Positions 17,939 to 51,501 of a DNA stretch of 64,000 nucleotides are shown in pieces. The translations under genes and the position numbers were made by a program. Origin of the DNA: Vulcanimicrobiota bacterium (lineage in GTDB: Bacteria > Vulcanimicrobiota > Vulcanimicrobiia > Vulcanimicrobiales > Vulcanimicrobiaceae); NCBI GenBank assembly GCA_963820825.1, contig CAWGBN010000008.1:288001-352000 (forward strand), read 5' to 3'. Each line of letters opens with the position of its first letter. Position 1 is the stretch's first letter. The notes under the pieces were generated by a model. That model saw only the letters and a program-made list of their open reading frames with translations, was not told where the DNA came from and did not search any database.

Positions 17939-20733
17939 GTACTGCTCCTCGCACGACCTGCGCGCACTCGGCGCAGATCAAAGGATGATCCGGGTCGGTT
18001 CCGAGCTCGCGGTACTTCCAGCAGCGCACGCATTTCGCGCCTACGGCCGCAGTAAGCTCGAGTGCGATGACGCCTTCGTCCGATTCGTCGCCGGCGGAAC
18101 TCTGTACGAGCTCGAGTTGCGAGACGACGAGCGCTTCGCGAAGGTTATCGCCCAGCGGCGCGAGCCGCTTGTACGCAGCGGGAGTTACCGTTAGGCGAAG
18201 CTGCGCCTCGAAGTCGCGCGGCGAGGAGACGCTCGCGACGCGTGCCCGAAGCGCGCGCAGCTGCTGCCAGAGGCGCAGGTCGCCTTCGGCTGCCGCGCCG
18301 CGGTGGCGCCCGGCGTCGAAGGAGGTGTCGAAGATGCTCTCCGCGTCGCCGCGCAGCGCGCGGGGTACGGCCTGCCAGGCCTCTTCCGCAGTAAAAGAGA
18401 GCACCGGCGCGAGCACGGTGAGAAAGCGGGCGAGCACGTAGAGCAGCGCCGACTGCGCGCTGCGCCGGCGCGGATCGTTCGCGGCGCGCGAGTAGAGCGG
18501 GTCCTTGAGCGCGTCGAAGTAGAGGCTCGACACTCCGCTCTCGAACTCGACGATGCGCAGGTAGGCATCGTGAATCTCACAGGCGTCGTATGCGCTCTTG
18601 ACGTTTGCGACGAAGGCGTCGGCCACCGTACAGGCAAGACGATCGATCGGCTCCATCTTTTCGCGTGCCACGATCTCGTTCTCGGGTAGATCGTCGAGAT
18701 TGGAGATCATGAACCGCATCCGGTTACGCAGATTGCGATAGACGCGCCCGACCTGCTCGACGACGTTAGGCCCGAAACGCACGTCGTCGATCGGCTCGAC
18801 CGATGCCGCCCAGAGCCGCAGCACGTCGGCACCCCAGCGATTCATCGCGTCGATGGCGTCGATGCCGGTGCCGGTCGATTTCGACATCGGGCGGCCTTCC
18901 TCGTCGTTGACCCAACCGTTCTTCAGCACGCGGCGATACGGCGCGCGTCCCTTGATCGCGACCCCGGTGATCAGCGAACTGCGAAACCAGCCGCGGAATT
19001 GATCTCCGCCTTCGAGCACCATGTCGCTCGGCCACGGCAGGCCGTCGCGGCCAAGCACCGCGAGATGTGTTACGCCGGATTCGAACCAGATGTCGACGAT
19101 GTTCTTCTCTTTTTCGAAACGCGTGCCGCGGCACTTCGGGCAGGCGAAACCGGGCGGTAGATAGGTCTCGACGGGATCGCTCCACCACGCGTCGGCGCCG
19201 ATTTCGCCGAATCGCTTCGCCGCGAGCCGCGCGACTCGCGCGTCGAGAATCGCCTCGCCGCAATCGAGACAGACCAGCGAGGGAATCGGCGTTCCCCACG
19301 TGCGTTGACGCGAGAGACACCACTCGGGATGCGTTTCGATCATCTGGCGCTGGCGCGCGCGTCCCCATTCCGGAACGTACTCGACGTCGTCGGTCGCATC
19401 GATCGCACGCTGTCGCAGCAGGTTCTGATCCATCGCGAGAAACCACTGCGCGGTCGCGCGGAAGATCACCGGATTGTGGCAGCGCCAGCAATGCGGATAG
19501 GAGTGCTCGTACTCCGCAGCGCTCCAGAGCGCGCCGCTCGATTGTAGGTCTTCTACGATCTTCACATTGGCGGTAAAGATGTTCGTGCCCGCGTACGGCC
19601 CGGCCTCAGCGGTGAAGCGTCCGGCCGCATCGACCGGATTGAGAATCGGCAATCCGTATCTCATCCCGGTATCGAAGTCGTCGGCGCCGTGGCCGGGCGC
19701 GGTATGCACCACCCCCGTTCCGGTTTCGAGATCGACGTAATCGGCCAGCACGACGACCGAATCGCGATCCATGAAGGGGTGGCGCACCGCAAGGTCGTCG
19801 AGCTGCGCGCCCGTGGCGCGACCGATCTGCGTCGCGCGCGCGAAGCGATCGCCGAGCGCTCGTTCCGCGAGCGCTTCGGCGACGATCACCGCTTCGTCGT
19901 CCACGCGATAGAGGCCGTAGGTCGCTTCGTCGCGGACCGCCAGCGCGACGTTCGCCGGGAGCGTCCACGGGGTCGTCGTCCAGATAAGGAACGAAACTCG
20001 TGAGGGCGGCGCGTCACCAGCGTTGTCATGCTGAGCCTGTCGAAGCATGACACGGTTATAGATCCGCTCAGCCTGCTCGGGGGTCGCGGTGAAGCGGACG
20101 TAGATCGACGGCGAAATGCGCTGCTCGTACTCGATCTCGGCTTCGGCGAGCGCGGTTTCGTCGTGGATGCACCAGAGCGTCGAGCGCAATCCTTTGTAGA
20201 TCTGTTGCCGTTCGGCGAGATCGGCGAGTGCGTTGACGATCGTAGCTTCGAAGGAGGGATCGATCGTGCGGTACGGGCGATCGAAAAGGCCGAAGTTGCC
20301 CATACGTACCCGATGCTCGCGCTGGCGGTCGAGCCAGAAGAGCGCGCGTTCTTTGCAGCGCGCGCGCAGCTCGAGCGGATCGATCGTGTGAAAATCGGTG
20401 ATTCCCAGAAACTTGAGCGTTTCGTACTCGATCGGCAGGCCGTGCATATCCCATCCGGGCACGAACTTCGCGTACTTGCCGTCGAGCAGCGCGATCTTCA
20501 CGAACATGTCTTTGAGCACCATGCCCAGCATCGTGCCCATGTGCGGGTTGCCGTTGGCGTAGGGCGGACCGTCGTGGAGAATCCATGGTCCGTTGGCGGC
20601 GTTGCGTTCCAAGCGCCGCTCGTAGGTGGCGTGCTCCTTCCACCAAGTCACGCCGCTCCGGCTCGCGCTTGGGCAGCTCGGCCTTCATCGGGAAGTCGGT
20701 CTTCGGGAGATTTAAGGTTGCGCGATAATCCAT
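17931..20733 (-). CDS. ileS: Isoleucine-tRNA ligase (type 1), with apparent 1-nt frameshift near 20653
   Basis: MDYRATLNLPKTDFPMKA (ORF starting at 20733) plus HDGPPYANG, WTTTPWTLPAN, WCLSRQR.WG, MSKS and C-terminal CxxC...CxxC (ORF 17931..20651). Confidence 0.95.
20024..20052 (+). repeat. Palindromic repeat inserted in-frame in ileS
   Basis: TGTCATGCT-GAGCCTGTCGA-AGCATGACA, a perfect 9-bp inverted repeat; reads VMLRQAQHD in IleRS. Confidence 0.8.
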
Positions 20734-20741
20734 CGTCTCGA

Positions 20742-21827
20742 TTAGCTTAAGAGTTCGCCCAGCACGTCGAAGTTGCGCTCTGCCGCCGCCGCGACCGCCG
20801 CGCGACGTTGCGCGAGGTGCGCGGCGAGCGCATCGCGTTCTTCCACGAGCCGGTCGACCAGCGCATCGATCGAGCTATCCGTGGGACGCGGTTCGCCCGC
20901 CTTCCAGATCGGTGCGAGTGGATACTCCAAGTCCTCGCAGAGCGACGCGACTTTCGGATCGTAGGAGATGGCGAGAAAGGGCACGGCATAGCGTGCGGCG
21001 AGCACGAGCGAGTGCAGCCGCATGCCGACGACGACCCGCGCGTTACGCAGAATCGAGGCCGCCTTCGGCAACGGGCACTCCGGCAAGAGCACCGGGTTCG
21101 ACGCGCAGGCGCGAATGACGTCGGTCGACGCCGCCGCGTCGCCGGCGCCGCCGAATGGAAGGAAGGCCGAGCGAATTTCGTACTGCTGCGCGAGCCGGTC
21201 GACGACGCGGGCGACGATGGCGGGAACGTCGCGAAAGGCCGGGATCTTGCGCACGCTCGTCACGGCGTAGGAACCGCTCTCCGGTCCGAGCCCTTCGCTG
21301 GCCAAATCGGCCTCCGCGTCGGGCGCGTCGTAGAGAAAGACGGGATCGGCGGTCTGCTCGACCGGCGTCTTGGGGAGCAGCTGCTGCAAGAGCAGCCGCG
21401 ATCGCTCGTCGCGAACGGTCGCGCGATCGAGGCCTTTGCAGAAGTGACGCACGACGAGACGCCCCCAGCGATCGAGCGGTCCGATCGACTGAGCGAAGAC
21501 CATTGTCTTGCGTCGCGCGCGAATTGCTTCGCGCAGAATCCCGGCGTAATAGAGGAGACTGCGCAGGCTCGTCGCGCTCTGCAGCAAGCCGCCCCCGCCC
21601 GAGAGGACGACGTCGGCGCGACCGATCGCGCCGCGAATTGCGCGCCAATCCCAGCGCGGCGTCGCCTCGACGCGATGCAAGCGCGCCGTCGCGGCCGGCG
21701 TCGCGGAGAGCACGTCGAGCTCCACCGCGGGGAAGCGCCGGCGCATGCGATCGACGATCACTTCGAGCAACGCTTCGTCGCCGAGATTGCCGAACCCGTA
21801 ATAGCCGGAGAGCAGCACGCGCGCCAT
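20742..21827 (-). CDS. csaB: Polysaccharide pyruvyl transferase CsaB
   Basis: SGYYGFGNLGDEA, SGGGGLLQ..TS.RSL.YY, AQSIGP, GMRLH, SYDPKV. Confidence 0.92.
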   Translation of the reverse strand: MARVLLSGYYGFGNLGDEALLEVIVDRMRRRFPAVELDVLSATPAATARLHRVEATPRWDWRAIRGAIGRADVVLSGGGGLLQSATSLRSLLYYAGILREAIRARRKTMVFAQSIGPLDRWGRLVVRHFCKGLDRATVRDERSRLLLQQLLPKTPVEQTADPVFLYDAPDAEADLASEGLGPESGSYAVTSVRKIPAFRDVPAIVARVVDRLAQQYEIRSAFLPFGGAGDAAASTDVIRACASNPVLLPECPLPKAASILRNARVVVGMRLHSLVLAARYAVPFLAISYDPKVASLCEDLEYPLAPIWKAGEPRPTDSSIDALVDRLVEERDALAAHLAQRRAAVAAAAERNFDVLGELLS

Positions 21828-23821
21828 CACGCCGTGGCCGGCACGAGCCGGCGATAGATCCAGATCGCGATCGCGCCGACCATCGCACCGACGATCAATC
21901 CGAAGACGATGCGCAGCACGGAGATCTCGATCGGCGTGTGCAGGTGCGAGAAGGTGTCGATGACGTCGCCGACGCCGACCCCGATTCCGAGCGCGAGCAG
22001 CCACCCGACCGCGCGACGGTGCGGCGGCAAGAGTGCCGGAAGCAGCATCATAGCGGGGAAACCGATCAAGAACTCTTTGAACCGGGGCCGCACGCTCAGG
22101 ACGTGGGTGAGTGCGTGGCGCAGGGCGAGTTCGAAGGCCGAGGGTGCGACGTCGCTATCGTTGCCGCTGCGCACGATCATGAGCGCACCGAGCGCAACGA
22201 TGGCGATACCGGCGAGGAGCTGATAGATGAGCACCGGCGAGAGAAAGACGTCGCGCGGCCGTTGTACGCTGCCGAAGCGGCGGTCGAACAGATAGAGCGC
22301 GAGCGCGATCACCGGCGGGAGCGCGAAGAATAGGCGCACGCCGCGAAAGCGCTCGATCTCCTCCATCGTGAGCGGCGAGCTGAGCACACCGACGACGACG
22401 AGCGCGCCGAGCAGTGCGACGCCGGTCGCGGCAAGCGTCCAGCCCAGGCTGCGAAGGAACTGCGTGGCGTCGGCCCGCGCCGGAATCTCGTTCCACGCCG
22501 GAATCAGGACGAGCAGTGCCGCGGTTGCAAAGAGCAGCGCGCCGCCGAGGGCAAAGACCGAGCGAACGAACTCGTCGTGATGGCTGACGAGCCCGCCGCC
22601 GTAGAGCAGAATCGTGAGCGCGTATGCGGCGATCGCGATGCTGCGGCGGTAGATGCCGAAGAACTCGAGCAGGATGACGAAGATCGACGGTACGGCGAGC
22701 GCGGCCAGGCCGACGAGCACGCGATTGTTTCCGCGGTACTCCGGAATCGGCGTCGCGCGGCCGAGCCGGAATCCGGAGGCGCGCAGCTGATCTGCGATCG
22801 CTTTGACCATCTCGACGTTCGTCGCTTCGATCGAGAGGTTTCCGTCTTGATGCGTCCACGGGCGCAGGTAGACGACGCGGACGTTTCGTTCGCGCACCCC
22901 GAGTACGTATCGCGCGACCGCTTCGTCGAGCTTGATCTTGTCGAGCTCGGTCTTCGCGATCGCCTGCACGCGCACGGTCCGCCCCGGAATCAGGCGCGCG
23001 AGCGTGTCGTTGCCTTTCTGCACTTGGCTCGGGTCGTACGTCTCGATCGAACCGAAGTTGAAGACGTGACGCTTGAACGCCGCGGCGGTATCCTCCAACC
23101 GATCGGGGTAGCCGAGAACCTGATTGCCGAGCCCAAAGAAGATCACCGTTGAAACCTTGGGATCGTATTGCAAGACGTCGTCGAAGGTCGCTTCGATCTG
23201 CGGCGCCTTGAGGCGCTCGTCGTTCTGAAAGCGCGGAACGACGAGCAATGCGAGGCGCCGGGCAAGCTCGATTTGATCGGTCGGAATCCCCAGCGCGGTC
23301 GCGTTGAAGTAATCGACCTGCGTGCGCACCTCGATCAGCCACGGCCGCACCGGCCGCAGAACGCGCACCGTGCGAGGGGCGAAGTGCAGCGCAAGCTGCG
23401 TGCGGTAGCGCCGATACGTCGCCGCGTCGGAGACGAGCAGATAGACCGCCCCGTCGCGGATGCGGCCGCTCTTCACCATCGCGGCGAGGAGCGGGTCGCG
23501 GATGGGCGTGACGCGCGCCTGGTTTACCAGCGCGCCTCCCGTGGTCGCGTAGGCTTTCCCGTTATCGCCGACGTTGGTTCCAAGCTCCTCGGTCAGCGCA
23601 AGCGAGGTGAGTCCGGCGCGGCGCAGTGCGATCAAAAACGCGGCCGGATTGTAATCGTACGATCGCGCCAGCGCGTCGAAGTCGGTAAAATCCATCGTCA
23701 GCTCGACGCGGCGCGCGTGCGACTCGGTGCGCACCCGAAAGAACGCAACCGCGAGCGCGGCGAGGAGGGCGACGAGCAAAACGGCGGCGGCGAAGCGCGT
23801 CCGCGGAGTGATGAGATTCAC
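21827..23821 (-). CDS. DUF5693-like multi-TM membrane protein (CsaB-associated)
   Basis: ERNVRVVYLRP, FRGVR, RPRFKEFLIGFP, DTFSHLHTP; coupled to csaB. Confidence 0.8.
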   Translation of the reverse strand: MNLITPRTRFAAAVLLVALLAALAVAFFRVRTESHARRVELTMDFTDFDALARSYDYNPAAFLIALRRAGLTSLALTEELGTNVGDNGKAYATTGGALVNQARVTPIRDPLLAAMVKSGRIRDGAVYLLVSDAATYRRYRTQLALHFAPRTVRVLRPVRPWLIEVRTQVDYFNATALGIPTDQIELARRLALLVVPRFQNDERLKAPQIEATFDDVLQYDPKVSTVIFFGLGNQVLGYPDRLEDTAAAFKRHVFNFGSIETYDPSQVQKGNDTLARLIPGRTVRVQAIAKTELDKIKLDEAVARYVLGVRERNVRVVYLRPWTHQDGNLSIEATNVEMVKAIADQLRASGFRLGRATPIPEYRGNNRVLVGLAALAVPSIFVILLEFFGIYRRSIAIAAYALTILLYGGGLVSHHDEFVRSVFALGGALLFATAALLVLIPAWNEIPARADATQFLRSLGWTLAATGVALLGALVVVGVLSSPLTMEEIERFRGVRLFFALPPVIALALYLFDRRFGSVQRPRDVFLSPVLIYQLLAGIAIVALGALMIVRSGNDSDVAPSAFELALRHALTHVLSVRPRFKEFLIGFPAMMLLPALLPPHRRAVGWLLALGIGVGVGDVIDTFSHLHTPIEISVLRIVFGLIVGAMVGAIAIWIYRRLVPATA

Positions 23822-24028
23822 GAAGCGCCTCTCCTTCGACCGATTCACAGAAGGGCCCGCCAAAGGCGAGCCCTCCTGCCGTCGCGTACGCGCGATTCCC
23901 TTATTTTTCGGGCTCGCGCGTACCGGGTGTGGGCGACGCTTTTCTCTCTTTCACGCGGCGCTCGCCGCCCACCGTCGAACGCCGGGCCGTCCCGGTTCAA
24001 CGGTGCCCACTGATCCCCTCCAGCGAGA

Positions 24029-24814
24029 CTAACGCCGCCAAACCGGTCGCCGCCGCTCGAGAAAAGCGGTGATGCCTTCGGTTGCGTCAGGCTCCATTGC
24101 GTTCGACGTCATCACCGCCTTGGTGTACTCGTACGCCCGCGCCTGATCGAGGTCGATCTGCTTGTAGAAGGCCGCCTTACCGATGCCGACGACGCCACGG
24201 CTCGATTCGGCGATCTTTCGCGCCAGTGCGAGCGTTTCGTCGTGAACCCGATCGGGAGCGACGACGCGATTGATCAAGCCCCACGCCAGCGCCGTCGGCG
24301 CGTCGATCGCTTCGCCGGTGAGCAGCATCTCCATCGCACGCTTACGTCCGATCGCGCGCGTGAGCGCGACCATCGGCGTGCTGCAGAATAATCCGATCCG
24401 CACCCCCGGCGTTGCGAAGACCGCCTCGCTCGAAGCGACGGCGAGATCGCAGGCGGCGACGAGCTGGCAGCCGGCGGCCGTCGCGACTCTGGCAACCTCG
24501 GCGATCACCGGCTGCGCAATCGCGGAGATGCGCGTCATCAGGTCGACGCAGGCCTCGAAGATCGCCTCGTAGGTACCGGCGTCGCGCCCGACGAGTTCGC
24601 GAAGATCGTGACCCGCGCAAAAGGCAGGCCCCTCGCCGCGGAGGATGACGACGCGGACCTCCGGATCCTCGGCGACTGCGGCGAGCGCGGCGTCGAGCTC
24701 GCGCATCATCGTCAACGAGAGCGCGTTACGTTTCTCGGGGCGGTTCATGGTGACGAGCGCGATCTCGCCTTCCCGGCCGATCGTGACTTCCGCGGACCCA
24801 GGCATCGCTTTCAT
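24029..24814 (-). CDS. Enoyl-CoA hydratase/isomerase
   Basis: AFCAGHDL, ATAAGCQLVAACDL, GLFCSTP; ATG at 24814. Confidence 0.93.
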   Translation of the reverse strand: MKAMPGSAEVTIGREGEIALVTMNRPEKRNALSLTMMRELDAALAAVAEDPEVRVVILRGEGPAFCAGHDLRELVGRDAGTYEAIFEACVDLMTRISAIAQPVIAEVARVATAAGCQLVAACDLAVASSEAVFATPGVRIGLFCSTPMVALTRAIGRKRAMEMLLTGEAIDAPTALAWGLINRVVAPDRVHDETLALARKIAESSRGVVGIGKAAFYKQIDLDQARAYEYTKAVMTSNAMEPDATEGITAFLERRRPVWRR

Positions 24815-24864
24815 ACCGAATCCTTGGCCCAGGGGGTAGCGATACCCCCCGGGCCGGCGAGCGC

Positions 24865-25338
24865 TTATGGGGCGGTGACGATATCGGATTTGATCTGGGC
24901 GAAGAGCTGGGCGAGTTGCGCCCGCAGCGCCGGCGGGATGTTGAACTTGTCCTCGGTCTGGCCGAAATCCGCGATGCTCGCATTCCACTCGTCTTCGGTG
25001 ATGTTCAGGCCGGCGTGCGCCACCTTCATGTCGCGTCCGGTATAGAGGCACGGTCCGCCGGTCTTCGCGCAGAGAAACTCGACGAAGTGCTGGCGCAGCT
25101 GTGCCTTGTGCTCGTCGTTGAGGCCGACGAAGAACTTCGCCAGCTTCGGATCGGTCGCGAGGCGCCCGATCGCGTCGTCGGTGACGGCGGCGAGCGCATC
25201 GTAGCCGCCGAGCTGTGCGTAGAGCGTCGTCGCCGGCGAGGGCGGGGGGGATTGCTGGGCGCGGGCGGCGCTCCACGTGCTCGCGACGCCCGTCAGGGCC
25301 AAAGCGAAGACCAGCAGGACGGAAAACCGCATTTTCAT
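24865..25338 (-). CDS. Group 1 truncated hemoglobin with signal peptide
   Basis: LYAQLGG, DP.L..FF, TGGPC.YTGRDM..AH; N-terminal Sec signal (ARA-Q). Confidence 0.9.
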   Translation of the reverse strand: MKMRFSVLLVFALALTGVASTWSAARAQQSPPPSPATTLYAQLGGYDALAAVTDDAIGRLATDPKLAKFFVGLNDEHKAQLRQHFVEFLCAKTGGPCLYTGRDMKVAHAGLNITEDEWNASIADFGQTEDKFNIPPALRAQLAQLFAQIKSDIVTAP

Positions 25339-25523
25339 TCTCAAACTCCCTCTCCAAAGAGTAGCAAGGCTTCGGGTATCCGCCGGAGCAAGCGGGCATT
25401 CCTAGCCCTTCCTGCCTCGCGCTCCCTTAGAGGAATATGGGACCTTTGGCCGCATGTTTCGGCCACGTCCGCCGGTTCGCCGGCGGTCTACTTCGAACAC
25501 CTAGCTATTGAAGGAGTTCAAAC

Positions 25524-26099
25524 GTGCGTTTCAGCCTTCTATGTGCGAGCGCAGCGCTCGCGGCAAGCTTGGTCCTCTCCGGATGTTCGACGAACGGCAG
25601 CAGCTCGGCGATTCCGGGCGGCTCGTCGACTACGTCGATGGCCGGTCACCGCGCCCAACTGCACATGGTGATCACCGGCGTGCACCACGCCTACACCTGC
25701 TCGGGCTCGGGTCTCTACGCCTGCTACCTGGTCAACAACGGCGCGACCGACTTCGAGTGGTGCATCGTCAACGTGACGAGCGGCAACTGCACCAGCGACC
25801 TCGCCCCCGGCAAGTGGTCCTGGACGAACACGGCCCCCATCCCGGGTAAGCCGAACACGGAAAAGATCAGCACCATGAAACCGACCGGCGCGGTCAAGTC
25901 GACGTGGGTTGGCCTCACCAAGAGTGGTCACGTCGCCAATCCGATCAACAACGACATCGTCGTCAAGAACAGCGTCAAGTACACCAAGGGCAAACCCGGC
26001 TACGAGTTCTCGTGGCAGGCCTGCGCGAAGAGCGGCCCCTACAAGGGCAGCTGCGTCGCCCCGCCGGGAGCCATCGGGATCATCGTCGGGAACTACTAA
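25524..26099 (+). CDS. Cys-rich hypothetical lipoprotein
   Basis: Lipobox LSGC, GAAGGAG RBS, six further Cys. Confidence 0.8.
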   Translation: MRFSLLCASAALAASLVLSGCSTNGSSSAIPGGSSTTSMAGHRAQLHMVITGVHHAYTCSGSGLYACYLVNNGATDFEWCIVNVTSGNCTSDLAPGKWSWTNTAPIPGKPNTEKISTMKPTGAVKSTWVGLTKSGHVANPINNDIVVKNSVKYTKGKPGYEFSWQACAKSGPYKGSCVAPPGAIGIIVGNY

Positions 26100-26129
26100 A
26101 TTCCCGCCCTGAATCGTTTATCGATTCGC

Positions 26130-26161
26130 AAGGAGGCTTGGCTTCGGCCGGGCCTCCTTTT
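26130..26161 (+). terminator. Rho-independent terminator
   Basis: AAGGAGGCTTGGC-TTCG-GCCGGGCCTCCTT followed by TT. Confidence 0.7.
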
Positions 26162-27491
26162 GTCGTTCGCGCTTGCATTAGCGAGCTGCGCGGTGACCCT
26201 CGCACTAGTTGGGTGTTCGCGTCTCACTCTGAGCCTGTCGAAGGGCGACACGTTCCTGCCGGACCTCAGTGAGACCGGAGCGGGGAAGATCGCGCACGTC
26301 GTCTACGTGATTCAAGAGAATCGCAGCTTCGACGACATGTTCCAGGGCTATCCGGGCGCCGACACCGTTTCGAGCGGAAAGAACTCTAAGGGCAAGACGA
26401 TCTCGCTGCAGCCGATCTCGCTCAAGACGCAATACGACATGGACCACTCGGCGCACGGCATGTTCGTCGCCTGCGACGGCACCGGAAAACTCCCCGGCAC
26501 GAAGTGCCGGATGGACGGCTTCGACCGCGAGCACATTTACGACGGCGGCCCCCGCAACGGCCAATACGCCTACGTGCCGCACGACGAATCGAAGCCGTAC
26601 TTCGAGATGGCCCACGAGTTCGTCGTGGCCGACCGCATGTTCGCCTCGCAGCTCGACGAGAGTTTCGTGGCCCATCAGTACGCGATCGCCGCGCAGGCAA
26701 AATCGAGCGTGGACGTTCCTTCGATCAAATGGGGCTGCCCCGGCGGCCCGGCGGCAACGGTTTCAACGATTACGAACCTCCGCACCTATGGGCCACGCCA
26801 ACGCGCCTGCTTCAACTACCGGACGCTCGGCGACGAGTTCGACAAAGCCGGCCTGAGCTGGCGATTCTATACGAGCAGCTACACCATACCGTTCAGTGGA
26901 TACTGGTCGGCCTATCAGGCGGTCAAACATATCTTCTACGGGCCCGATTGGAATCAAGACGTCATCACGCCGCAGAAGCAGTTTCTGCACGACGTGAAGG
27001 CCGGCAAACTCGCGAGCTTTACCTGGATTACGCCCGAATGTCCCGAGTCCGACCACCCCGCCTGCGGCCACGGATTAGGACCATCGTGGGTCGCCGCGGT
27101 GGTCAACGCGGTCGGGAAGAGCAAGTTCTGGAACTCGACCGCGATCTTCGTACAGTGGGACGATTGGGGCGGCTTCTACGACCACGTCCGGCCGCCGCAT
27201 CGCGGCTACGACGGCCTTGGATTTCGCGTTCCGCTGATCGTCATCTCACCGTATGCGAAGCAGAACTACGTCTCGCACGTGCAGTACGAGACCGCAAGCG
27301 TACTCCGCTTCGCCGAGGATCTCTTCGGCCTGCCGCAGCTCACTGCCGCCGACAAGCGCGCCGCGTCACCCGCCCTCGACTGCTTCAACTTCAAGCAGAA
27401 GCCGCGCAAGTTCGTGCCGATCAAGGCTCCCAAAGGCGAAGACTTCTTCTTCCGTCAGCCGCACGACCCGCGCATTCCCGACGCGGATTAA
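26160..27491 (+). CDS. Phosphoesterase (AcpA/PLC family) lipoprotein
   Basis: LVGC lipobox, [34 protein letters not shown]. Confidence 0.9.
26222..26250 (+). repeat. Palindromic repeat in-frame just after the lipobox
   Basis: TCTCACTCT-GAGCCTGTCGA-AGGGCGACA; loop identical to the ileS copy; reads LTLSLSKGD. Confidence 0.7.
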
Positions 27492-27499
27492 CGGCGGCC

Positions 27500-28888
27500 T
27501 TAATCTCCCTCAGCCGTATCGTTGCGCGGACGCCCGGCCGACGGCCGGCTCTCCAACTCGCGCCAATAGGACGGCGATTTGCTGCCGCCGATCTCTTTGA
27601 AGCGGCGCGGCCGCTGCTGGAAATCGAACGCGTTGGGGTCGTTCGCGGGGTCCTGCGCCCGCGCATCGCTCTTGGCCAACGGCGCTAGGCCGAAGTTATC
27701 TTCAATGAAGCGCAGCACGCTCGCGGTCTCGTATTGCTCGTGCGTCACCACGCCGCGCTTGGCATAGGGCGAGACGATCAGCAGCGGAACGCGGAAGCCC
27801 AGACCGTCGTAATCTTTGTAGACCGGCTTGACCGGATCGAACCAGCCGCCCCAGTCGTCCCAAATGATGAAGATGGCCGTCGACTTCCAGAACTTGCTCT
27901 CGCCGATCGTGTTGACTAGGCTGGCGATCCACGCCGGACCCTCCTTTGCATCGATGCTCGGATGATCGGAGGTCTCCCAAATCGGCGTGATCCAGGTGAT
28001 TGCCGCGAGTTGACCGCTGCCCACGTCGGTGAGGAACTGCGCCGGTGGATTGATGACGTTCGTGCTCCAGTCCGAGCCGTAATAGATCGCGCGATCGGCT
28101 TGATACGACGACCAGAGCCCGCCGTCGCCCTCGGTCGTACCGGCATAGAACCTCCAGTCGATCCCGGCTGCGTCGGCCTCCGAAGCGATGGTCGGATTGT
28201 CGAAGCACGCCTCGACGCGACCGCTCTTTCGCCGGTCTTTGCTCAGCGTTGGAAGCGTGTCGTGTTTTCCGCCTTCACATCCCCAGCTGCTGCTCGGATA
28301 ATCGACGGCGTGGCTGGAGTACGCAGCAACGGAGTATTGGTGCGCGACGAAGCTGCCGTCGAGATTCGAGGCGAACGTCTCGTCGCCGAGGACGTACTGC
28401 TGTGCGATCGTCCAGTACGGTACGATCTCGTCTTGCGGCACGTAGGCATACGCGAGATCCTTTGGAGCGTAGCGCGGGTTCGCTTGCGTGTCCCAGCCGT
28501 CCATCTTGCATTTCGTCCCACGTAACTTACCTTGACCGTCGCAGGCGGCGAAAAAATCGCTCGACCCGTGCCCGGGATCCCACGAGCTCCAGAGCCGGCG
28601 CGCCATCAGCTTGACTTGATTCCCCTGCGAATCGTAGCCGTACCGTGACGTAACCGCGCCGGGATAATCCATGAAGAGATTGTTGAACGAACGATTCTCT
28701 TGAATCACGAAGACCACGTGCTTAATGGGTGAGTGCGCCGTGTCGCCCTTCGACAAGCTCAGGGTGACACGACTGGGGGCGTCGCTCAGGGTGACGCCAT
28801 TAGGGCTGCAGGCCGCGAGGCATGCGGCACATAGCAACGTAAGCAAGGCTTTCGTCGTCATCGCTGAAGATGGTATCACATTATTCAT
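27500..28888 (-). CDS. Phosphoesterase lipoprotein
   Basis: LAAC lipobox, [29 protein letters not shown]. Confidence 0.9.
28741..28796 (-). repeat. Palindromic repeat plus extra half-copy, in-frame after the lipobox
   Basis: Minus strand TGTCACCCT-GAGCTTGTCGA-AGGGCGACA (28741-28769) and GTCACCCTGAGC (~28784-28795); reads [16 protein letters not shown]. Confidence 0.8.
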
Positions 28889-35952: not shown

Positions 35953-35963
35953 CCCCAGCTACG

Positions 35964-36125: not shown

Positions 36126-36260
36126 GGTGTGTCTCCCTTAAAATGTGAGATGTGACGAAACTTGCCGCTTTCTTAAGCGGCTCGCCGACAATGGTACCAC
36201 GTTGCTATCCAGGCCGCTATGGTGCGTTTGTACCGACTCGTAAACGGCGGGCACTAATCG

Positions 36261-36336
36261 TGGTGGGCGATGACGGGCTCGAACCGCCGACATCCTCCTT
36301 GTAAGGGAGGCGCTCTCCCAGCTGAGCTAATCGCCC
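36261..36336 (-). tRNA. tRNA-Val(TAC)
   Basis: GGGCGATTAGCTCAGCTGGGAGAGC...CTTACAA...GGTTCGAGCCC...TCGCCCACCA, 76 nt with encoded CCA. Confidence 0.97.
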
Positions 36337-36352
36337 TCGCGGATCGCCTCGG

Positions 36353-37897: not shown

Positions 37898-37947
37898 CGC
37901 TCGCACGCCGGGAAGGTTCCAAAGTGTACGCACATCCCGAGACGAGC

Positions 37948-38343
37948 TTGAACAAGCACTACCAGGCCGCCTACACCAGCGACATCCGAAACGTGGCGCT
38001 GGCGCGCCAGGAGATTGCTCGCTTTGCGATCGCGTGCGGATTCTCGGAGGAGGACGTCTCGGATATCCGCCTGGCCGCCGGCGAAGCGCTGAGCAATGCG
38101 GTCGAACATGGCTGCGCGACCTCCGACCGCAGCTTCACCGTGAGGTGCGGGTTTGACGGGGAGCGACTCACGATCGTGATTCAAGACAGCGGTCGCGGCT
38201 TTGCCGAGCCGGTCCACCGGGTGAGCGTCGAACCCGACGACCGCGGACGCGGCTTCGGCATCTTCTTGATGCGCCGCTTGATGGACGAAGTCTCCTTCGC
38301 GCGCAACGGGAGCGTCGTGCGGCTTGTCCGCCGACATCCCTAG
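37948..38343 (+). CDS. RsbW-like anti-sigma factor / HATPase_c protein
   Basis: EALSNAVEHG, IQDSGRGF, GRGFGIFLMRRLMDEV. Confidence 0.88.
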   Translation: MNKHYQAAYTSDIRNVALARQEIARFAIACGFSEEDVSDIRLAAGEALSNAVEHGCATSDRSFTVRCGFDGERLTIVIQDSGRGFAEPVHRVSVEPDDRGRGFGIFLMRRLMDEVSFARNGSVVRLVRRHP

Positions 38344-38350
38344 CTCGCGC

Positions 38351-39685: not shown

Positions 39686-39728
39686 GGGTCCCCTCTTCGA
39701 TTCTTATCGCAATAACGCATAGCAAGCG

Positions 39729-40688: not shown

Positions 40689-40730
40689 GAGGAAGGGATG
40701 GCGCCCGGCCCCGGACGATACCTTTAAACC

Positions 40731-42092: not shown

Positions 42093-42190
42093 AAGTGACC
42101 AAGATTAGTGACGTTTATCAACCCCTACGCCATACGCGTTCGGTCAAATGGAAGACCGGCTCAGACGGCGAACCGTCGGAAGAGTTCGGT

Positions 42191-43432: not shown

Positions 43433-43503
43433 AGTCAGATGGCTACTGACGCTAAGACACCGCAGAGACATGTCTCCGTGCCTGGGCCCTTCGTACTTGG
43501 AGC

Positions 43504-44607
43504 GTGCGCACCGTACACGCCGCCGCTCCACTCTTCGTAGGCCTGGGCAATCTCGAATCGCTGATGCTCTCGCGCAGCTTGGCGACGCAACGAGTCGATC
43601 GCCCGGTTTATATCTGCGGCCTACCGCGGGCCGGCACGACGATCACGCTGCAGATGCTCAGCGAGCATCCCGACGTCGTCACGCACAAGTACGCGGACTT
43701 CCTGATGCCCTACATGCCGTGGGTCTGGAACAACGTCTTCCCGCGCATCCCGGTCGACGCGATGCGCAAACCGGTGCCGCGCATCCATCGCGACCGCATC
43801 GAGGTGACGCGCGACAGCGCCGAGATGGGCGAAGAGATTCTCTGGGAACACTTCTTCCCGTTCATCCACGACGAATCGAAGTACAGCGTCCTCGATAGCT
43901 CGACGTCGAATCCGGCCTTCGAGCGCTTCTACAGCGAGCATCTGCGCAAGCTGGCGATGGTCCGCGGACGCAGCCGCTACGTCAGCAAAGCGATTCTCTG
44001 CGTGCTGCGCATGCAGTACCTGCGCAAGATTTTCCCCGACGCGCGCTTCCTGCTCTACGTTCGCAACCCGATCGATCACGTCGCCTCGCTGATCAAGCAG
44101 GACCGCATTTGGGCCGAGCTCGAGCGCGACGACCCGCGTCAGATCGAGATCATCGAGCTCACCGGGCACCACGAGTTCGGCACGCGCCAGGTCATGGCGA
44201 ACGTCGGCAGCCCCGGGACTCTGCGCGAGATCCGCCGGCTCTTCGACGAAGGAAAGTGGGCGCAGTCCCGCGCGCGTTACTGGGCCTACGTCTACGGCTT
44301 CGTCGCCGGACAGCTCGATGCCGATCCCGAGCTCGCGCGCAGCGTCTGCATCGTCCGCTACGAAGACCTCTGCAGCGACTCGCCGACGACGATCGACCGC
44401 ATTCTGACGCACACCGGTCTCGACGCGGCGAGCTTTGCCGACGCCAAGGCCAAGTACGACGAGAAGCTCTCCTTCCCCGATTACTACAAGCCTACGTTTA
44501 CCGCCGACGTCATGGACGATATCATTGCCAGCACCTCCGATGTAGCCAAACGGTTCAACTACGACGTCGGCGCCATCGCGCAGAGAGTCGGCGTTGTCGC
44601 GTCGTGA
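43504..44607 (+). CDS. PAPS-dependent sulfotransferase
   Basis: 5'-PSB loop GLPRAGTT, 3'-PB motif RNPIDHVAS, RYEDL; true start may be ATG 43439 across a frameshift. Confidence 0.88.
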   Translation: MRTVHAAAPLFVGLGNLESLMLSRSLATQRVDRPVYICGLPRAGTTITLQMLSEHPDVVTHKYADFLMPYMPWVWNNVFPRIPVDAMRKPVPRIHRDRIEVTRDSAEMGEEILWEHFFPFIHDESKYSVLDSSTSNPAFERFYSEHLRKLAMVRGRSRYVSKAILCVLRMQYLRKIFPDARFLLYVRNPIDHVASLIKQDRIWAELERDDPRQIEIIELTGHHEFGTRQVMANVGSPGTLREIRRLFDEGKWAQSRARYWAYVYGFVAGQLDADPELARSVCIVRYEDLCSDSPTTIDRILTHTGLDAASFADAKAKYDEKLSFPDYYKPTFTADVMDDIIASTSDVAKRFNYDVGAIAQRVGVVAS

Positions 44608-46019
44608 CGCTCCGCTCTCGCTGCGCTCTGGCGATTGCCGCTAGCGTAGCCGTAACCGCCTGCGGCGGCGGAGTAAACGGAACGCCGCCGCTCACCGAAC
44701 TCCCCGGCCGCCATCACCGCTCGGGCAGCTCGCCGATCACGCACGTGGTGCTGATCATTCAAGAGAACCGAACCTTCAATAATCTCTTCGCGGGCTTTCC
44801 CGGTGCGACCAGCTCGCTCACCGGCGAAGAGCTCGTCAAGCAAGGCAACGGATACGTCGAGCAAAAGATCAGCCTCACCAAGACCAAGCTCACCGACAAG
44901 CAGAACATCGCCCATCTCTATAAAGCCTTCTTAACCGCGTGGCAGAAAGGCGCGATGGACGGCTTCAGCCTGGTGAAGTTCACCCGCACCGGACAACCCG
45001 AAGGTAAGACACCCTATCAGTACGTCGACCCGGCACAGATCGTCCCCTATCGCACGATGGCCGCGCAGTGGGGCCTCGCCGACGAGATGTTTCAGACCCA
45101 GGGCAGCGACAGCTTTACGGCCCATCAGGATCTCATCCGCGGCGGCACGTTCATCAACAGCACCCAGAGCCTGATCGACCCGCCGACCTCACCCTACGTC
45201 TGGGGCTGCGATGCCGGACCCGGCGCGAAGACCTCGCTGATCACCACGAAACTCAAGCTCAAAGTCGATGCGGGTCCCTTCCCGTGCTCGAACGCCTTCC
45301 CCAACTACGGATCGGGCGGGTATAAGACGCTGCGCGATTTGCTCGAAGCGAAGTCGCTCTCGTGGAAGTACTACACGCCGCAGTTCGAGCACTCGCAGCC
45401 CAACGGCATGTGGGACGCCTTCGACGTGATCGCACCCGTACGGTACAGTTCGGAGTGGACGACGAACATCTCATCGCCCGAAACGAACATCCTCACCGAC
45501 ATCTCGAACGGCGATCTGCCGGCGATGTCGTGGGTAGTTCCCGACGCGGCGAACTCCGACCATCCCGGCTACGCGCGCAAGGATACCGGCCCGTCGTGGG
45601 TCGCGAGCATCGTCAACGCGATCGGAGAGAGTCAATACTGGAACTCGACGGCGGTGATCGTCGTTTGGGACGACTGGGGCGGATTCTACGATCCGGTCGC
45701 GCCTCCGAAGCAGGATAATGAAGGCGGCCCGGGCTTCCGCGTTCCGATGATCGTCGTCTCGCCGTACGTTAAGACCGGTAGCGGCAGCCAAGGCGGTTAC
45801 GTCTCGCATACGATCTACGAGTTCGGCAGCATCCTGCGCTTCGTCGAAGATACCTTCGGGCTGGGCAGATTGGGAACGACCGACTCGACCTGCACGAGCA
45901 TGGGCGACATGTTCGATCTCGGCCAATCGCCGCGCACGTTCAAACAGATCGGGTCGAAGTATTCCAAGGAGTATTTCCTTCGCGAAAAGCCGTCAAACTA
46001 TCCCGTCGACACCGAGTAA
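44604..46019 (+). CDS. Phosphoesterase lipoprotein, subfamily B
   Basis: GTGA overlap with the sulfotransferase stop; VTAC lipobox, QENRTFN, DSFTAHQ. Confidence 0.9.
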   Translation: MTLRSRCALAIAASVAVTACGGGVNGTPPLTELPGRHHRSGSSPITHVVLIIQENRTFNNLFAGFPGATSSLTGEELVKQGNGYVEQKISLTKTKLTDKQNIAHLYKAFLTAWQKGAMDGFSLVKFTRTGQPEGKTPYQYVDPAQIVPYRTMAAQWGLADEMFQTQGSDSFTAHQDLIRGGTFINSTQSLIDPPTSPYVWGCDAGPGAKTSLITTKLKLKVDAGPFPCSNAFPNYGSGGYKTLRDLLEAKSLSWKYYTPQFEHSQPNGMWDAFDVIAPVRYSSEWTTNISSPETNILTDISNGDLPAMSWVVPDAANSDHPGYARKDTGPSWVASIVNAIGESQYWNSTAVIVVWDDWGGFYDPVAPPKQDNEGGPGFRVPMIVVSPYVKTGSGSQGGYVSHTIYEFGSILRFVEDTFGLGRLGTTDSTCTSMGDMFDLGQSPRTFKQIGSKYSKEYFLREKPSNYPVDTE

Positions 46020-46026
46020 TAGAGTC

Positions 46027-47442
46027 ATGAACCTCGCGTACCGTTCGATGCCGATGCTGCTGTCGGCGAGTCTCGCGCTCTCCGGCTGCGCCGCCGGCGT
46101 ATCCTCCTCGATTCCGAGCATCGAGTCGCCCTTTACCGCGCCGCCGCCGTCCGCGTCGAAGATCACGCACGTCGTGCTGATGATTCAGGAGAACCGGACC
46201 TTCAACAATCTCTTCGCCGGTTTTCCGAATGCGAAGAGCTCGCTTACCGGCGAAGAGCTGGTTAAGCAAGGCGGCAAATACGTCGAGCAAAAGGTTAACC
46301 TCACCAAAGCCGACCTCACGTATAAGGGCAACCTCACCCATCTTTACGACGCATTCTTAACGGCGTGGCACAAGGGCGGGATGGACGGATTCAACCTGGT
46401 CAAGTACGTCCGCAACGGTCAGCCCGAAGGGACGGCGCCCTATCAATACGTCGATCCATCGCAGATCGGGCCGTACCGCACGCTGGCGGCGCAGTGGGGT
46501 CTTTCCGACGAGATGTTTCAGACGCAGGGCAGCGACAGCTTCACCGCCCACCAGGATCTGATTCGCGGCGACACGTTCATCAACTCGACCCAGAGTCTGA
46601 TCGATCCGCCGACTTCGCCCGACGCCTGGGGCTGCGATTCGGGACCGGGTTCGAAGACGCAAGTGATCACGACGAAACTCAAGTTCCTCCACAACGCCGG
46701 GCCCTTTCCGTGCACCAAAGACTTCCCAGGCGGCTCGAGCAGCTATCCGACGCTGCGCGACCTGCTCGATGCGAAATCGGTCTCGTGGAAGTATTATGCG
46801 CCGCCGTTCGAGCACTCGCAGCCGAACGGGCTCTGGAACGCCTTCGACATGATCGCGCCCGTTCGCTACGGCTCGGAATGGACGACGAACATCTCCTCGC
46901 CGGAGAAGAACGTGCTCTCCGACATCAAGAACGGCAACCTTCCGGCGATGTCGTGGGTGATTCCCGATGCCGCAAACTCCGACCACCCCGGATACGCGGC
47001 GCACGATACCGGTCCGTCGTGGGTTGCCTCCGTCGTCAATGCGATCGGCCAGAGCCACTACTGGAACTCGACGGCGATCATCGTCGTTTGGGACGACTGG
47101 GGCGGCTTCTACGACCCCGTGGCTCCGCCGCCGCAAGATAATCAGGGCGGCCCCGGCTTCCGCGTCGCGATGATCGTCGCCTCACCCTACGTTCGCCTCA
47201 ACGGCGCCGGCAAGGCGGGCTACGTCTCGCACACGCTCTACAGCTTTGGCAGCATCCTTCGCTTCATCGAAGACATGTTCGCGCTCGGACGCCTCGGCAC
47301 GACCGATTCGACCTCCAAGAGCATCGGTGATATGTTCAACTTCAAGCAATCGCCGCGCAAGTTTCAGAAGATCCAAACGCAGTACTCGCGCGACTTCTTC
47401 GTCCGGCAGCGACCCTCACGACTCCCCGTCGACACCGACTAG
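46027..47442 (+). CDS. Phosphoesterase lipoprotein, subfamily B
   Basis: LSGC lipobox; close paralog of 44604..46019. Confidence 0.9.
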   Translation: MNLAYRSMPMLLSASLALSGCAAGVSSSIPSIESPFTAPPPSASKITHVVLMIQENRTFNNLFAGFPNAKSSLTGEELVKQGGKYVEQKVNLTKADLTYKGNLTHLYDAFLTAWHKGGMDGFNLVKYVRNGQPEGTAPYQYVDPSQIGPYRTLAAQWGLSDEMFQTQGSDSFTAHQDLIRGDTFINSTQSLIDPPTSPDAWGCDSGPGSKTQVITTKLKFLHNAGPFPCTKDFPGGSSSYPTLRDLLDAKSVSWKYYAPPFEHSQPNGLWNAFDMIAPVRYGSEWTTNISSPEKNVLSDIKNGNLPAMSWVIPDAANSDHPGYAAHDTGPSWVASVVNAIGQSHYWNSTAIIVVWDDWGGFYDPVAPPPQDNQGGPGFRVAMIVASPYVRLNGAGKAGYVSHTLYSFGSILRFIEDMFALGRLGTTDSTSKSIGDMFNFKQSPRKFQKIQTQYSRDFFVRQRPSRLPVDTD

Positions 47443-47461
47443 CGGGGCGCCGCTGCGGCGG

Positions 47462-48799
47462 CTAATCTGCGTCGGGGATGCGATCGTCGAGCGGCTGGTT
47501 GATGAAGAACTGCGCGTCGTGCGGCGCTTTGATCGGCACGAACTTGCGCGGCTTCTGGGTAAAATCGAGGCAGTCTGGTGCGGGCGATCTCGCGCGCTTG
47601 TCGGCGGCTGAGAGCGAAGGGAGCCCGAAGAGGTCTTCAGCGAATCGCAGTACGCTTGCGGTCTCGTACTGCTTGTGCGAAACGAAATCTTTCTTTGCAT
47701 AGGGCGAGATGACGATCAGTGGAACGCGGAAGCCGAGCCCGTCGTAATCCCTAAACGGCGGCGGCACGGGATCGTAGAGACCCCCCCAATCGTCCCACTG
47801 CACGAAGATCACCGTCGAGTCCCAAAACTTGCTCTTCCCGACCGCGTTGACTACCGACGCGACCCACGACGGACCATAGCCGCCGCCGCAATCGAGATGG
47901 TCGGAGTCGGGACAGAGCGGCGTTACCCACGTGAAGGCCGAGAGCTTGCCGGCGGCGACGTCTTTCAGGAACCGGTGCTGCGGCGTGATGATATTCTTCT
48001 TCCAATCCGGGCCGTGGAAGATGTGCTTCACCGCCTGATACCCCGACCAGAGGCCGCTATACGGTTTATTGTACTTGCTCGTGTAGAAGCGCCAGCTCAA
48101 TCCCGCGCCGTCGAGCTCGTCACCGAGCGTGGTGTAGTCGAAGCACGGCGCCTGGGGCTTGCCGTAGGTTCGCTTCATCGTGATCGTCGGTTCGGGGTCG
48201 CCTTTGCCGCCTTCGCAACCCCACCAGCCGCCGGGCACGTCGACGCTCGACTGCGCTTGGGCGGCGATGATGTACTGATGCGCGACGAAGCTCTCGTCGA
48301 GCTGCGATTGGAACATCTTGTCGGCGAGCACCCACTCGTGCGCCATGTCCCAATACGGCTTCGACTCCGAGTGCGGAACGTAAGCGTATTGGGCATCACC
48401 GCCGCCGCCGACGGAGCCCTCCTTGTCGAAACCGTTCATCCGGCATTTCGTTCCGGGAAGCGAGCCGGTTCCGTTGCAGGCAAGAAACATCGCCTCCGCG
48501 CCGTGCGCGATCTCGTAGGTCTTGGTCAGGCTCACCGGACGCAGCGCAATGGTCTTGCCGCGCGAGTCCTTCCCGCTCGAGACCGTATACGCGTTGGGAT
48601 AACCTTCGAACATATCGTTGAAGCTGCGATTCTCCTGGACGACCCAGACGACGTGCTGGATCTTTCCGGCGCCCGTGCCGTTGAGCGTTTCGATGGCCGC
48701 ATCGCCACGCATATAGGGCAGCGCCCCACCGCTGTTACCGCCGTAAGCGCACGCGGTGAGCGCCAGCGCCGTCGTAACTGCAAAGATTCGTTTACTCAT
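47462..48799 (-). CDS. Phosphoesterase lipoprotein (last gene of array 2)
   Basis: LTAC lipobox, QENRSFN, ESFVAHQ, DDWGG. Confidence 0.9.
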   Translation of the reverse strand: MSKRIFAVTTALALTACAYGGNSGGALPYMRGDAAIETLNGTGAGKIQHVVWVVQENRSFNDMFEGYPNAYTVSSGKDSRGKTIALRPVSLTKTYEIAHGAEAMFLACNGTGSLPGTKCRMNGFDKEGSVGGGGDAQYAYVPHSESKPYWDMAHEWVLADKMFQSQLDESFVAHQYIIAAQAQSSVDVPGGWWGCEGGKGDPEPTITMKRTYGKPQAPCFDYTTLGDELDGAGLSWRFYTSKYNKPYSGLWSGYQAVKHIFHGPDWKKNIITPQHRFLKDVAAGKLSAFTWVTPLCPDSDHLDCGGGYGPSWVASVVNAVGKSKFWDSTVIFVQWDDWGGLYDPVPPPFRDYDGLGFRVPLIVISPYAKKDFVSHKQYETASVLRFAEDLFGLPSLSAADKRARSPAPDCLDFTQKPRKFVPIKAPHDAQFFINQPLDDRIPDAD

Positions 48800-50141
48800 A
48801 ATCGGGTGCGAAGTAATCGTCGGGGAACTGCTTCATAAAGAACTTCGGCGGATGCGAGGCGTAGATTTTGACGAACGGCCGCGGCTTCTGCGAGAAATCG
48901 AAGGCATCTTTGCCGGGTGCGTTCGCGCGCGCGTCGGCGTGGGAAAGTTGCTTCAACCCGAAGAGGTTCTCGGCGAAGCGTAAGACGCTCGCCGTCTCGT
49001 ATTGGACGTGGGTGACGTGGTCCGCCCGGGCGTACGGCGAGATGATCAGCAGCGGAACGCGGAAGCCCAGGCCGTCGCGCCCTTCGTACGGCGGTGGAAC
49101 GTGGTCGTAGAGTCCGCCCCAATCATCCCACTGCACGAAGATGACCGTCGAGTCCCAAAACTTACTCTTTCCGACCGTGTTGACCAGCGCCGCGACCCAC
49201 GACGGTCCGAAGGTTCCGGGGCAGTTCACGTGATCGGAATCGTCGCAGACCGGCGTCACCCAGGTGAAATTTGCAAGCTCGCCGTTACGAACGTCGGTAA
49301 TGAACTTCCAGTTGGGCGAGATGACGTTCTTCCAGTCCGGACCGTAACGAATGTGCTTGACGGCCTCGAAGCTCGACCACTCCGCTCCGCCGTCGCTCTG
49401 GCCGCTCCCGTACTTGGCCGAGTAGAAACGCCAAGTGAGCTTCGCGCTGTCGAGTTCGTCGGCGAGCGTCTCGTAGTCGAAGCAGGGATGGCTCGAACGC
49501 ATGTCGATCGTTCGCTGCGCAGTGATGGTGTCGAGCGTATCGTACTTCCCGCCGCCGCAGCCCCAGCGGCCGTTCGGCAGATCGACGGAATAGTCGGCCT
49601 GCGCCGCAATAATATACTGATGTGCGACGAAGCTCTCGTCGAGCTGCGATTGGAACATCTTGTCGGCGAGCACCCACTCGTGCGCCATGTCCCAGTACGG
49701 CTTCACTTGTTTGTAGGGAGCGTAAACATACTCGCGATTCTTCGGTCCGCCGAAGCCCCACTCGTTGTCGAAGCCGTTCATCTGACAGTCGGTACCGGGA
49801 AGCTTTCCCGTTCCGTTGCACGCCGCGAACATCGCCGTCACAGAGTGGTCGATCTCAAACGGGTGGCCGAGCGGATAGGGCCGCAGCTTGATGACGTGCC
49901 CTTTCGAATCCTTGCCGCTCGAAACGGTGTCGGCGTTCGGATAGCCTTGGAAGAGGTTGTCGAAGCTGCGGTTCTCCTGGACGATGTAGACGATGTGCTG
50001 GATCTTTCCGGCACCCGTATCGTTGAGCGCGCCCAGCGCTGCGTCGCCGCGCATGTACGGCAAGGCCCCGCCGGCGGTGGAGGATGAAGCACAGCCGGCG
50101 AGCATCAGAGCCGCCGCGATAAAGACGATATATTTATTCAT
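48792..50141 (-). CDS. Phosphoesterase lipoprotein
   Basis: LAGC lipobox; same motifs. Confidence 0.9.
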
Positions 50142-51501
50142 AATCCGGTATCATGTCGTCGTTAGGGAGTTGGTGCATGAAGAATCTCGGCGGTTTCGGC
50201 GCCGCAATCTTCACGAACGGGAGCGGTTTTTGGCGAAAGTCGAAGCACTCACGCGCCGGCGAGTTTGCACGCGCGTCGGCCGCCGCGAGCTGCCCCAAGT
50301 CCCACAGGTTCTCGGCGAAGCGCAGCACGCTTGCCGTCTCGTACTGTTGGTGCGCGACGGTGCCGCGCCGCGCGTACGGTGAGACGACGATCAGCGGGAC
50401 TCGGAATCCGAGCCCGTCGTAATCTTCGTATGGCGGCGGAACGTGATCGTACATTCCGCCCCAATCGTCCCAGGTCACGAAGATCGCCGTCGACTTCCAG
50501 AACTTGCTTTCGCCGACGGTATTGACGAGCGCGGCGACCCACGAAGGCCCGTACCCGCCGCCGCAGTTCGAATGATCGGAGTCGGCGCAGACCGGCGTGA
50601 TCCAGGTGAAGTTTGCAAGCTCGCCGTTGCGTACGTCGGTGATGAACTTCCAGTTCGGCGAGACGACGTTCTTCCAGTCGGGACCGTACCGGATGTGCCG
50701 GACGGCTTGGAAACTCGACCAGAGACTCGCATTGCCGCTCGACGGGCTACCGTATCGCGACGCGTAAAACCGCCAGGAGAGTTTTGCCGCGTCGAGCTCG
50801 TCCGCGAGCGTCTGATAGTTGTAGCACGGATGAATGAGCTGTCCGTACGTCATCCGGTTCTTGGTAATCGTGAAGATGACGTTCTGCTTTCCACCGCCGC
50901 AGCCCCAGAAGCCGCGCGGCAGATTGACGCTCGCGGCCGCCTGGGCGGCGATAACGTATTGATGCGCGACGAAACTCTCGTCTAGCTGCGACTGAAACAT
51001 CCGGTCGGCGACCACTCCTTCGCGCGCCATGTCCCAGTACGGCTGTGAGTCCTTGCGCGGGACGTAGACGTACTGGTCGTGCGTCGGACCTCCGAACGAC
51101 GTCTCTTTATCGAAGCCGTCCATGAGACAGTCGATTCCCGGCAGTACCTGCTTGCCGTCGCACGCGCGAAACATCGCCGTGGTCGAATGATCGACCTGGT
51201 ACTGCAAGGCGAGACTCGCGGGCCGAAGCCGGATCGTCTCTCCCGCGGAGTCCTTGCCTTTCGTTACCGTATCGGCCCCGGGATACCCCATGAAGAGGTT
51301 GTCGAAACTGCGATTCTCCTGCACGATGAAGATGACGTGCGAAATCTTTCCCGCGCCGGTCTCGCCGAGCGCGCGCATTGCCGCGCCGCTTCGCATTCTG
51401 TCATCCTGAGCGGAGCGACCGGAGGGAGCGAAGTCGAAGGACTGCCGTACGCAGCCGGCGAGCATCAAACCCGCCGCGATAAAAACGATCCGCTTACTCA
51501 T
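50134..51501 (-). CDS. Phosphoesterase lipoprotein
   Basis: [17 protein letters not shown] from ATG 51501; same motifs. Confidence 0.9.
51399..51446 (+). repeat. Long-loop variant of the palindromic repeat, in-frame after the lipobox
   Basis: TGTCATCCTGAGC-GGAGCGACCGGAGGGAGCGAA-GTCGAAGGA; reads [15 protein letters not shown] on the minus strand. Confidence 0.75.

Follow-up and report, generated by a model that had tools for sequence, protein, structure and literature searches.

Two described systems stand close to the element reported here. REP (repetitive extragenic palindromic) sequences of the CGTC type include intragenic units inserted in frame, tRNA synthetase genes included; the accessible part of their 2013 description (PMC3733652) records no transposase and leaves open how such repeats spread. 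In-frame insertion itself is thus already known (PMC3733652). Chenal et al. 2025 (PMC11893778) tied tagged hairpins to GIY-YIG Ssn nucleases, and in the accessible text the mobility of hairpin-nuclease-hairpin units is hypothesised only. We analysed a window of 64,000 nucleotides (positions 288001-352000 of contig C8) from a Vulcanimicrobiota assembly of 2.98 Mb that is 85% complete. The window carries hairpins of one repeat family inside ileS and inside three genes for PF04185 phosphoesterases. Judged by sequence, this element works like the CGTC-REP/Ssn systems, with a distinct repeat/nuclease pair.

The repeat is dispersed and occurs throughout the genus; its TGTCA tag is invariant, its stem covaries and its loop varies. 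In several phyla a dedicated GIY-YIG gene is bracketed head-to-head by the repeat, and this cassette occurs in nine different places, to which empty sites correspond in the present genome. The same enzyme loops and lipoprotein tethers repeatedly acquired hairpins, singly or as pairs, in either orientation and in several frames. By analogy, we consider it probable that the element is a selfish 5'-tagged hairpin and that the bracketed nuclease cuts the hairpin as single-stranded DNA (ssDNA), driving the copying of hairpin and cassette by break repair. As in SsnA, so far as the accessible text of PMC11893778 describes it, cleavage of ssDNA would fall 5' of the tag, a few bases away. At the break, recombination or template switching would do the copying, and insertion would show little site preference. 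Purifying selection would keep in-frame copies alone, in flexible loops and in tethers behind the lipobox-like Cys, and decay would follow. The present genome seems to be an orphan host.

Genome-wide, the repeat had the form TGTCAYSCTGAG-C-(CT or a 12-27-nt sub-hairpin)-GTCGAAG-G. Two-armed matches numbered 72, compared with 5 in a fourth-order Markov simulation. Copies were counted by patterns, and the stringent pattern, TGTCAYSCTGAG-(variable loop)-TCGAAG, gave 62 loci in the genome and 0 in the reversed genome used as control; it misses the degenerate copy at 26222 and some real ones (acnA, fadB, hpnE-shc). This census replaced a relaxed one (109 clusters, 43 inside open reading frames (ORFs)), which was dropped for its many chance one-mismatch matches. 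Contig C8 held 24 of the 62 loci on 23% of the genome. A strict pattern gave 38 copies in the present genome and 8-200 copies in 36/36 same-genus genomes. Outside the genus it matched 0/5 same-order and 1/19 same-class genomes (1/24 in all; G048 and G059 among the 19 are unpublished). The scan of genome and relatives proposed in a preliminary description of this DNA thus returned further copies at both levels. Rfam gave no match at gathering score in five repeat-rich loci. We found no literature on this repeat or genus; neither CTGAGC nor GTCGAAG was found in 12/14 Chenal supplements, figures not covered, and the matches listed for GTCATCCTGAG in the literature were all unrelated by title.

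At two variable stem positions, non-modal left bases were still paired in 29/33 and 86/90 copies, against maxima of 7 and 45 after shuffling; the copies are related, so these figures are not probabilities. The co-varying arms and DNA-level conservation of the preliminary description were borne out at these two stem pairs. Its perfect 29-nt palindrome was rejected. T preceded GTC in 236/240 copies, tag positions were paired in 19-62%, and the base opposite the tag A was C in 176/261 copies. The TGTCA tag is invariant and yet for the most part unpaired; the element is therefore a hairpin of the tagged REP type, and the perfect palindrome of ileS is one special case. About 4 positions were reliably paired, followed by mismatches and a variable insert. 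Half-copy duplications accounted for 93/172 tandem pairs. Their breakpoints clustered after GAGC (38/93 at 12-14 nt), which was rejected as a cut-site signal, since the loop varies there anyway.

Like the CGTC REPs in the accessible part of PMC3733652, the repeat has a mostly unpaired 5' (C/T)GTC tag before a covarying stem, forms head-to-head pairs, and occurs in tens to hundreds of copies, mainly intergenic and some intragenic in frame, with no RAYT (REP-associated tyrosine transposase). CGTC-1 to 4 have an 8-9 bp stem and a 4-5-nt loop there, whereas our element has a stem of about 4 bp, then mismatches (GAG...CGA) and a variable insert of 2-27 nt, and belongs to a phylum new to that account. 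The strings VILS, LRQAQ, CHPE, LSLSK and PFDK were absent from the PMC3733652 supplements; the published consensus (Fig. 2) was not compared. Rickettsia palindromic elements (RPE), in the accessible parts of PMC10969869 and PMC3733652, share the frequent in-frame insertion into unrelated housekeeping genes. Their host range differs from the free-living soil lineage here, and RPE-1 (about 150 bp, conserved peptide) differs from our 22-60 nt, several frames, both orientations and no conserved peptide. A non-autonomous hairpin family of the RPE/REP-like kind, as first suggested, is supported, and so are its DNA-level covariation, its empty orthologous sites and, of the two partners suggested, the GIY-YIG nuclease and not a RAYT.

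This partner was seen in relatives as a single-domain GIY-YIG gene of about 95-105 aa (PF01541 only) between inverted repeat copies. A repeat lay within 300 nt of the dedicated gene in 23/24 genus loci, compared with 1/6 other GIY-YIG loci. Profile A1 scored above 115 bits in 25/36 genus genomes (one gene broken). In 22 genomes outside, its score was 61 bits or less, and 0/22 had the gene; the range of the nuclease gene thus matches that of the repeat. Among the best 80 of 583 nuclease relatives in genome_contigs, the repeat stood on at least one side in 68, on both sides in 51 and in inverted orientation in 50. These relatives span six phyla: Vulcanimicrobiota, Bacteroidota, Acidobacteriota, Verrucomicrobiota, Ignavibacteriota and Peregrinibacteriota. 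The putative catalytic residues Tyr7, Tyr17, Gly19, Arg27 and Glu65 were invariant in 16 aligned copies. PDB matches were UPF0213 proteins only, and NCBIfam held no model for the dedicated nuclease. Its C-terminus often extends into the downstream repeat (L004, L010, L014, L017, L024, L030), giving PSTGSG and a stop. The near-identical proteins at L013 and L110 (branches 0.02 and 0.01) come from a genome of the same genus and from a record under the label Ca. Acidoferrum; on sequence, this would reflect recent transfer, mis-binning or mislabelling.

The Ssn/SRM systems, in the accessible text of PMC11893778, likewise have a single-domain GIY-YIG gene of about 95-100 aa bracketed by tagged hairpins, and the residues tested in SsnA (Y6, Y17, E64) lie at spacings close to those of Tyr7, Tyr17 and Glu65. 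Our nuclease showed 33% identity to an SRM-flanked protein and a common C-terminal EK..K.W.R/K..K motif. The published SRM pattern, however, was present in 0/63 full copies and 0/80 nuclease loci, compared with 75/80 NTS loci as positive control. In an unrooted three-group tree, 30 dedicated-nuclease rows fell between SRM-flanked and unflanked YhbQ-like rows. The SRM-flanked proteins stood on their own side of a long branch (1.59, support 100/100), with only 9 Ssn-like rows, chosen by resemblance and SRM flanks (8/9), and one row from the unpublished G059.

The preliminary description had suggested a search for either a RAYT/Y1 transposase or a small GIY-YIG nuclease, and the latter was found bracketed by repeats in relatives. 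The architecture does resemble REP-RAYT-REP, as REP/REPIN-RAYT systems also place the enzyme gene between inverted copies of its own hairpin and disperse non-autonomous copies. Mobilisation in trans by a RAYT/Y1 or other transposase, as with GTAG REPs, is nevertheless most improbable. The tag is TGTC and not GTAG, and the gene between the inverted copies encodes a GIY-YIG protein and not an HUH tyrosine transposase. No Y1 transposase (PF01797) matched in the present 85% complete genome, and a RAYT partner was rejected on that account; relatives were not searched for PF01797. Di Nocera, in the accessible part of PMC3733652, likewise saw no transposase beside CGTC repeats. The dedicated nuclease was also not found in the present assembly, where tblastn with four dedicated proteins hit only a YhbQ-like gene. 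The two PF01541 matches in this assembly were rejected as partner, one being a 792-codon frame (UvrC-sized) and the other the unflanked YhbQ-like gene.

The cassette fell into 9 context groups among 24 genomes. Two of its sites were examined in the present genome and were clean short gaps between convergent genes; one of them was occupied in two relatives, in opposite orientations. A third site contained two repeats and no nuclease DNA. Such occupation of nine sites with empty counterparts goes beyond the Ssn/SRM account in the accessible text of PMC11893778. At the ileS and alaS junctions of single hairpins, no target-site duplication, which goes with terminal inverted repeats in miniature inverted-repeat transposable elements, was evident; these junctions look like replacements, and the orthologs compared are about 80% identical. 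The flanks of the cassette of G026 map either side of window positions 15857-16715. This interval contains a broken short gene (16114-16284), which by eye we take to be nucleotidyltransferase-like, between pseudouridine-synthase-like and tgt-like genes.

Several observations weigh against a mobilising nuclease. No nuclease was found in 12/37 genus genomes, the present one included, which had 8-129 repeats, nor in the one genome outside the genus with 4 repeats. Genomes with the nuclease gene had only weakly more copies (median 70 vs 40.5; one-sided p 0.047, related genomes not being independent). To our knowledge, GIY-YIG nucleases have no strand-transfer chemistry. On the side of the insertions, 2 of 17 coding copies (C6:69071, C6:705367) may sit in ORF extensions past the real protein, and tether calls by the relaxed pattern may include chance matches. 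Several 'empty' ileS loops resemble decayed elements, and gains and losses there are not exactly countable. The nuclease might be no more than a resident partner that filters incoming ssDNA in the manner of SsnA, with the hairpins spread by host recombination, slippage and gene conversion. Lower transformation is the sole demonstrated role of SsnA in the accessible text of PMC11893778, slippage could yield the half-copy duplications, and genomes without the gene hold up to 129 copies. Slippage, however, moves neither a hairpin into unrelated genes nor a cassette to nine sites, and repeat and gene share one taxonomic boundary and adjoin across six phyla. We regard this explanation as rather unlikely, and prefer copying driven by nuclease cleavage.

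Genes were called with our own codon model, and about 82% of the genome is coding. Of 62 stringent loci, 17 lay inside ORFs and 45 outside ORFs or merely overlapping them, so copies are depleted from genes. The 27% inside ORFs is far above the 2% given for the NTS of N. meningitidis in the accessible part of the source. Both orientations relative to host genes were confirmed, with 9 sense and 8 antisense copies. Among the hosts assigned by Pfam were alaS, leuS, aconitase, a fadB-type enzyme, an amidohydrolase, a protein of the ZnuA type and an amine-oxidase/squalene-cyclase ORF. As the letters show, each strand of the common form has one reading frame closed by a TGA.

Empty orthologous sites, looked for at the suggestion of the preliminary description, were present in the ileS, leuS, fadB, alaS and tether comparisons. 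The ileS loop measured 25-29 aa in 19/20 orthologs that the pattern did not match and 28-47 aa in the 11/31 that it did; with five further genomes, elements numbered 12/36. Carriers were scattered on the gene tree, and the inserts varied in orientation, frame, subtype and position, in about eight configurations by eye. The same region has only about 14 residues in a solved isoleucyl-tRNA synthetase (IleRS), so the loop is naturally variable in length. Elements were observed in 5/31 leuS and 4/6 fadB-type genes, and the aconitase loops behaved like those of ileS, leuS and the fadB-type gene. The alaS loop had 13 aa in the present genome vs 8 aa in 3/4 readable relatives. For hpnE, the anchors of the comparison were present in just 1/5 and 0/5 relatives. 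In leuS of G014 and G011 (L390, L391), frame changes fall at element copies; they are probably errors of assembly at the hairpins, since frameshifts occur in the absence of elements too.

The second class of hosts was the PF04185 phosphoesterase/phospholipase-C-like lipoproteins, with 59 paralogs in 3 Mb, 17 of them in the window (26160-60846). They form tandem arrays with overlapping stop/start codons, and relatives show a similar expansion. In the three window hosts the element stands right after a lipobox-like Cys, as described earlier, and most window paralogs are without it. With a relaxed pattern (at most 2 mismatches), 14/59 paralogs matched, one probably by chance. On a paralog tree of 58 rows, 13 positives required 11 changes, compared with 11.9 after shuffling, and at least 6 were forced. 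Descent of the tether copies from one ancestral insertion through paralog duplication was therefore not supported overall; one subclade was enriched in elements. In 20 stretches of relatives, 25/95 tethers had an element. An 83%-identical ortholog of the 26160 gene carried a different subtype in opposite orientation. Just past the window, C8:352000-370000 (L078) holds a local cluster of element-bearing PF04185 tethers.

Tethers held 8/17 stringent coding copies on about 1.3% of coding DNA, and a single relative had elements in 13/17 sampled tethers. Neisseria NTS repeats likewise cluster at membrane-protein genes, so far as the accessible source goes. These figures favour a repeat domesticated for the diversification of surface-lipoprotein tethers, by targeting or positive selection. 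We judge this very unlikely. The tether bias is concentrated in one tandemly amplified family, PF04185, and does not extend to lipoproteins at large, and recurrence was equal in the cytoplasmic loops of IleRS, LeuRS and FadB. Ortholog peptides were not conserved, as the oppositely oriented copy at 83% identity shows, and several relatives had no element in sampled tethers. Creation of useful peptides or linker diversification as a function, as initially proposed, was likewise unsupported: 45/62 loci lie outside or merely overlap ORFs, the loops were already length-variable, and many copies decay. Insertions into genes look like tolerance, not adaptation. It is a doubtful further idea that the system forms a transposase-free mobile class, in which a second, cross-phylum GIY-YIG lineage outside the published SRM set would move its own cassette and seed hairpins, harnessed in this genus for tether variation across the 59-member phosphoesterase family.

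The copies in the window are listed in Table 1. All four copies described earlier were at their places, in frame and with the expected peptides. The core CTGAGCYTGTCGAAG had 3 matches in the window at one mismatch or fewer, compared with a shuffle mean of 0.01. The 26222 copy deviated from the earlier consensus at two bases (TCTCACTCT); neither this copy nor the long-loop copy folds as DNA into a long hairpin. The ileS start (MDYRATLNLPKTDFPMKAELPKREPE) lies at 20733 on the minus strand, with a frame change near 20650 (20640-20733). It is likely an assembly indel, because the frames of relatives are open for about 900 aa or more. At 26130-26165 a terminator-like hairpin belonging to the neighbouring region overlaps the N-terminal coding part of the 26160 gene, which has no ATG. 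Its ortholog in G005 has the same overlap, likewise without ATG. By its sequence the 26160 gene would have a non-standard start or be degraded.

Table 1. Repeat copies in the window and the genes that contain or follow them
Feature	Position	Strand	Remarks
Short-form hairpin (strand of the tag)	20024..20052	+	Predicted antisense reading in ileS, VMLRQAQHD; DNA fold -9.4 kcal/mol
Host gene ileS	17931..20733	-	TIGR00392 above cut-off; hairpin in variable loop between SIYVRF and IWTTTPW
Degenerate short-form hairpin	26222..26250	+	Predicted sense reading LTLSLSKGD
Host PF04185 phosphoesterase, lipoprotein-like	26160..27491	+	Start codon uncertain
Short-form hairpin	28741..28769	-	Predicted sense reading VTLSLSKGD
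Tandem left-arm half copy, 27-nt period	28784..28795	-	Predicted peptide VTLSDAPSR
Host PF04185 phosphoesterase, lipoprotein-like	27500..28861	-	Pfam match
Long-loop form with internal sub-hairpin	51399..51442	+	Predicted antisense reading in host
Host PF04185 phosphoesterase, lipoprotein-like	50134..51501	-	Pfam match
Left-arm half copy, absent from the preliminary description	4600..4612	+	Directly upstream of gene starting at 4616

The genus gives comparative evidence on the spread of CGTC-type repeats, as the cassette is found at nine sites with empty counterparts. Through the repeated insertions, essential enzymes and lipoprotein tethers have undergone a natural insertion scan. The GIY-YIG proteins form a candidate family of ssDNA nucleases that differs in its recognition hairpin and is directly assayable. 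With a distinct repeat/nuclease pair, empty-site evidence and repeated loop invasion, the question of how such repeats spread becomes directly testable.

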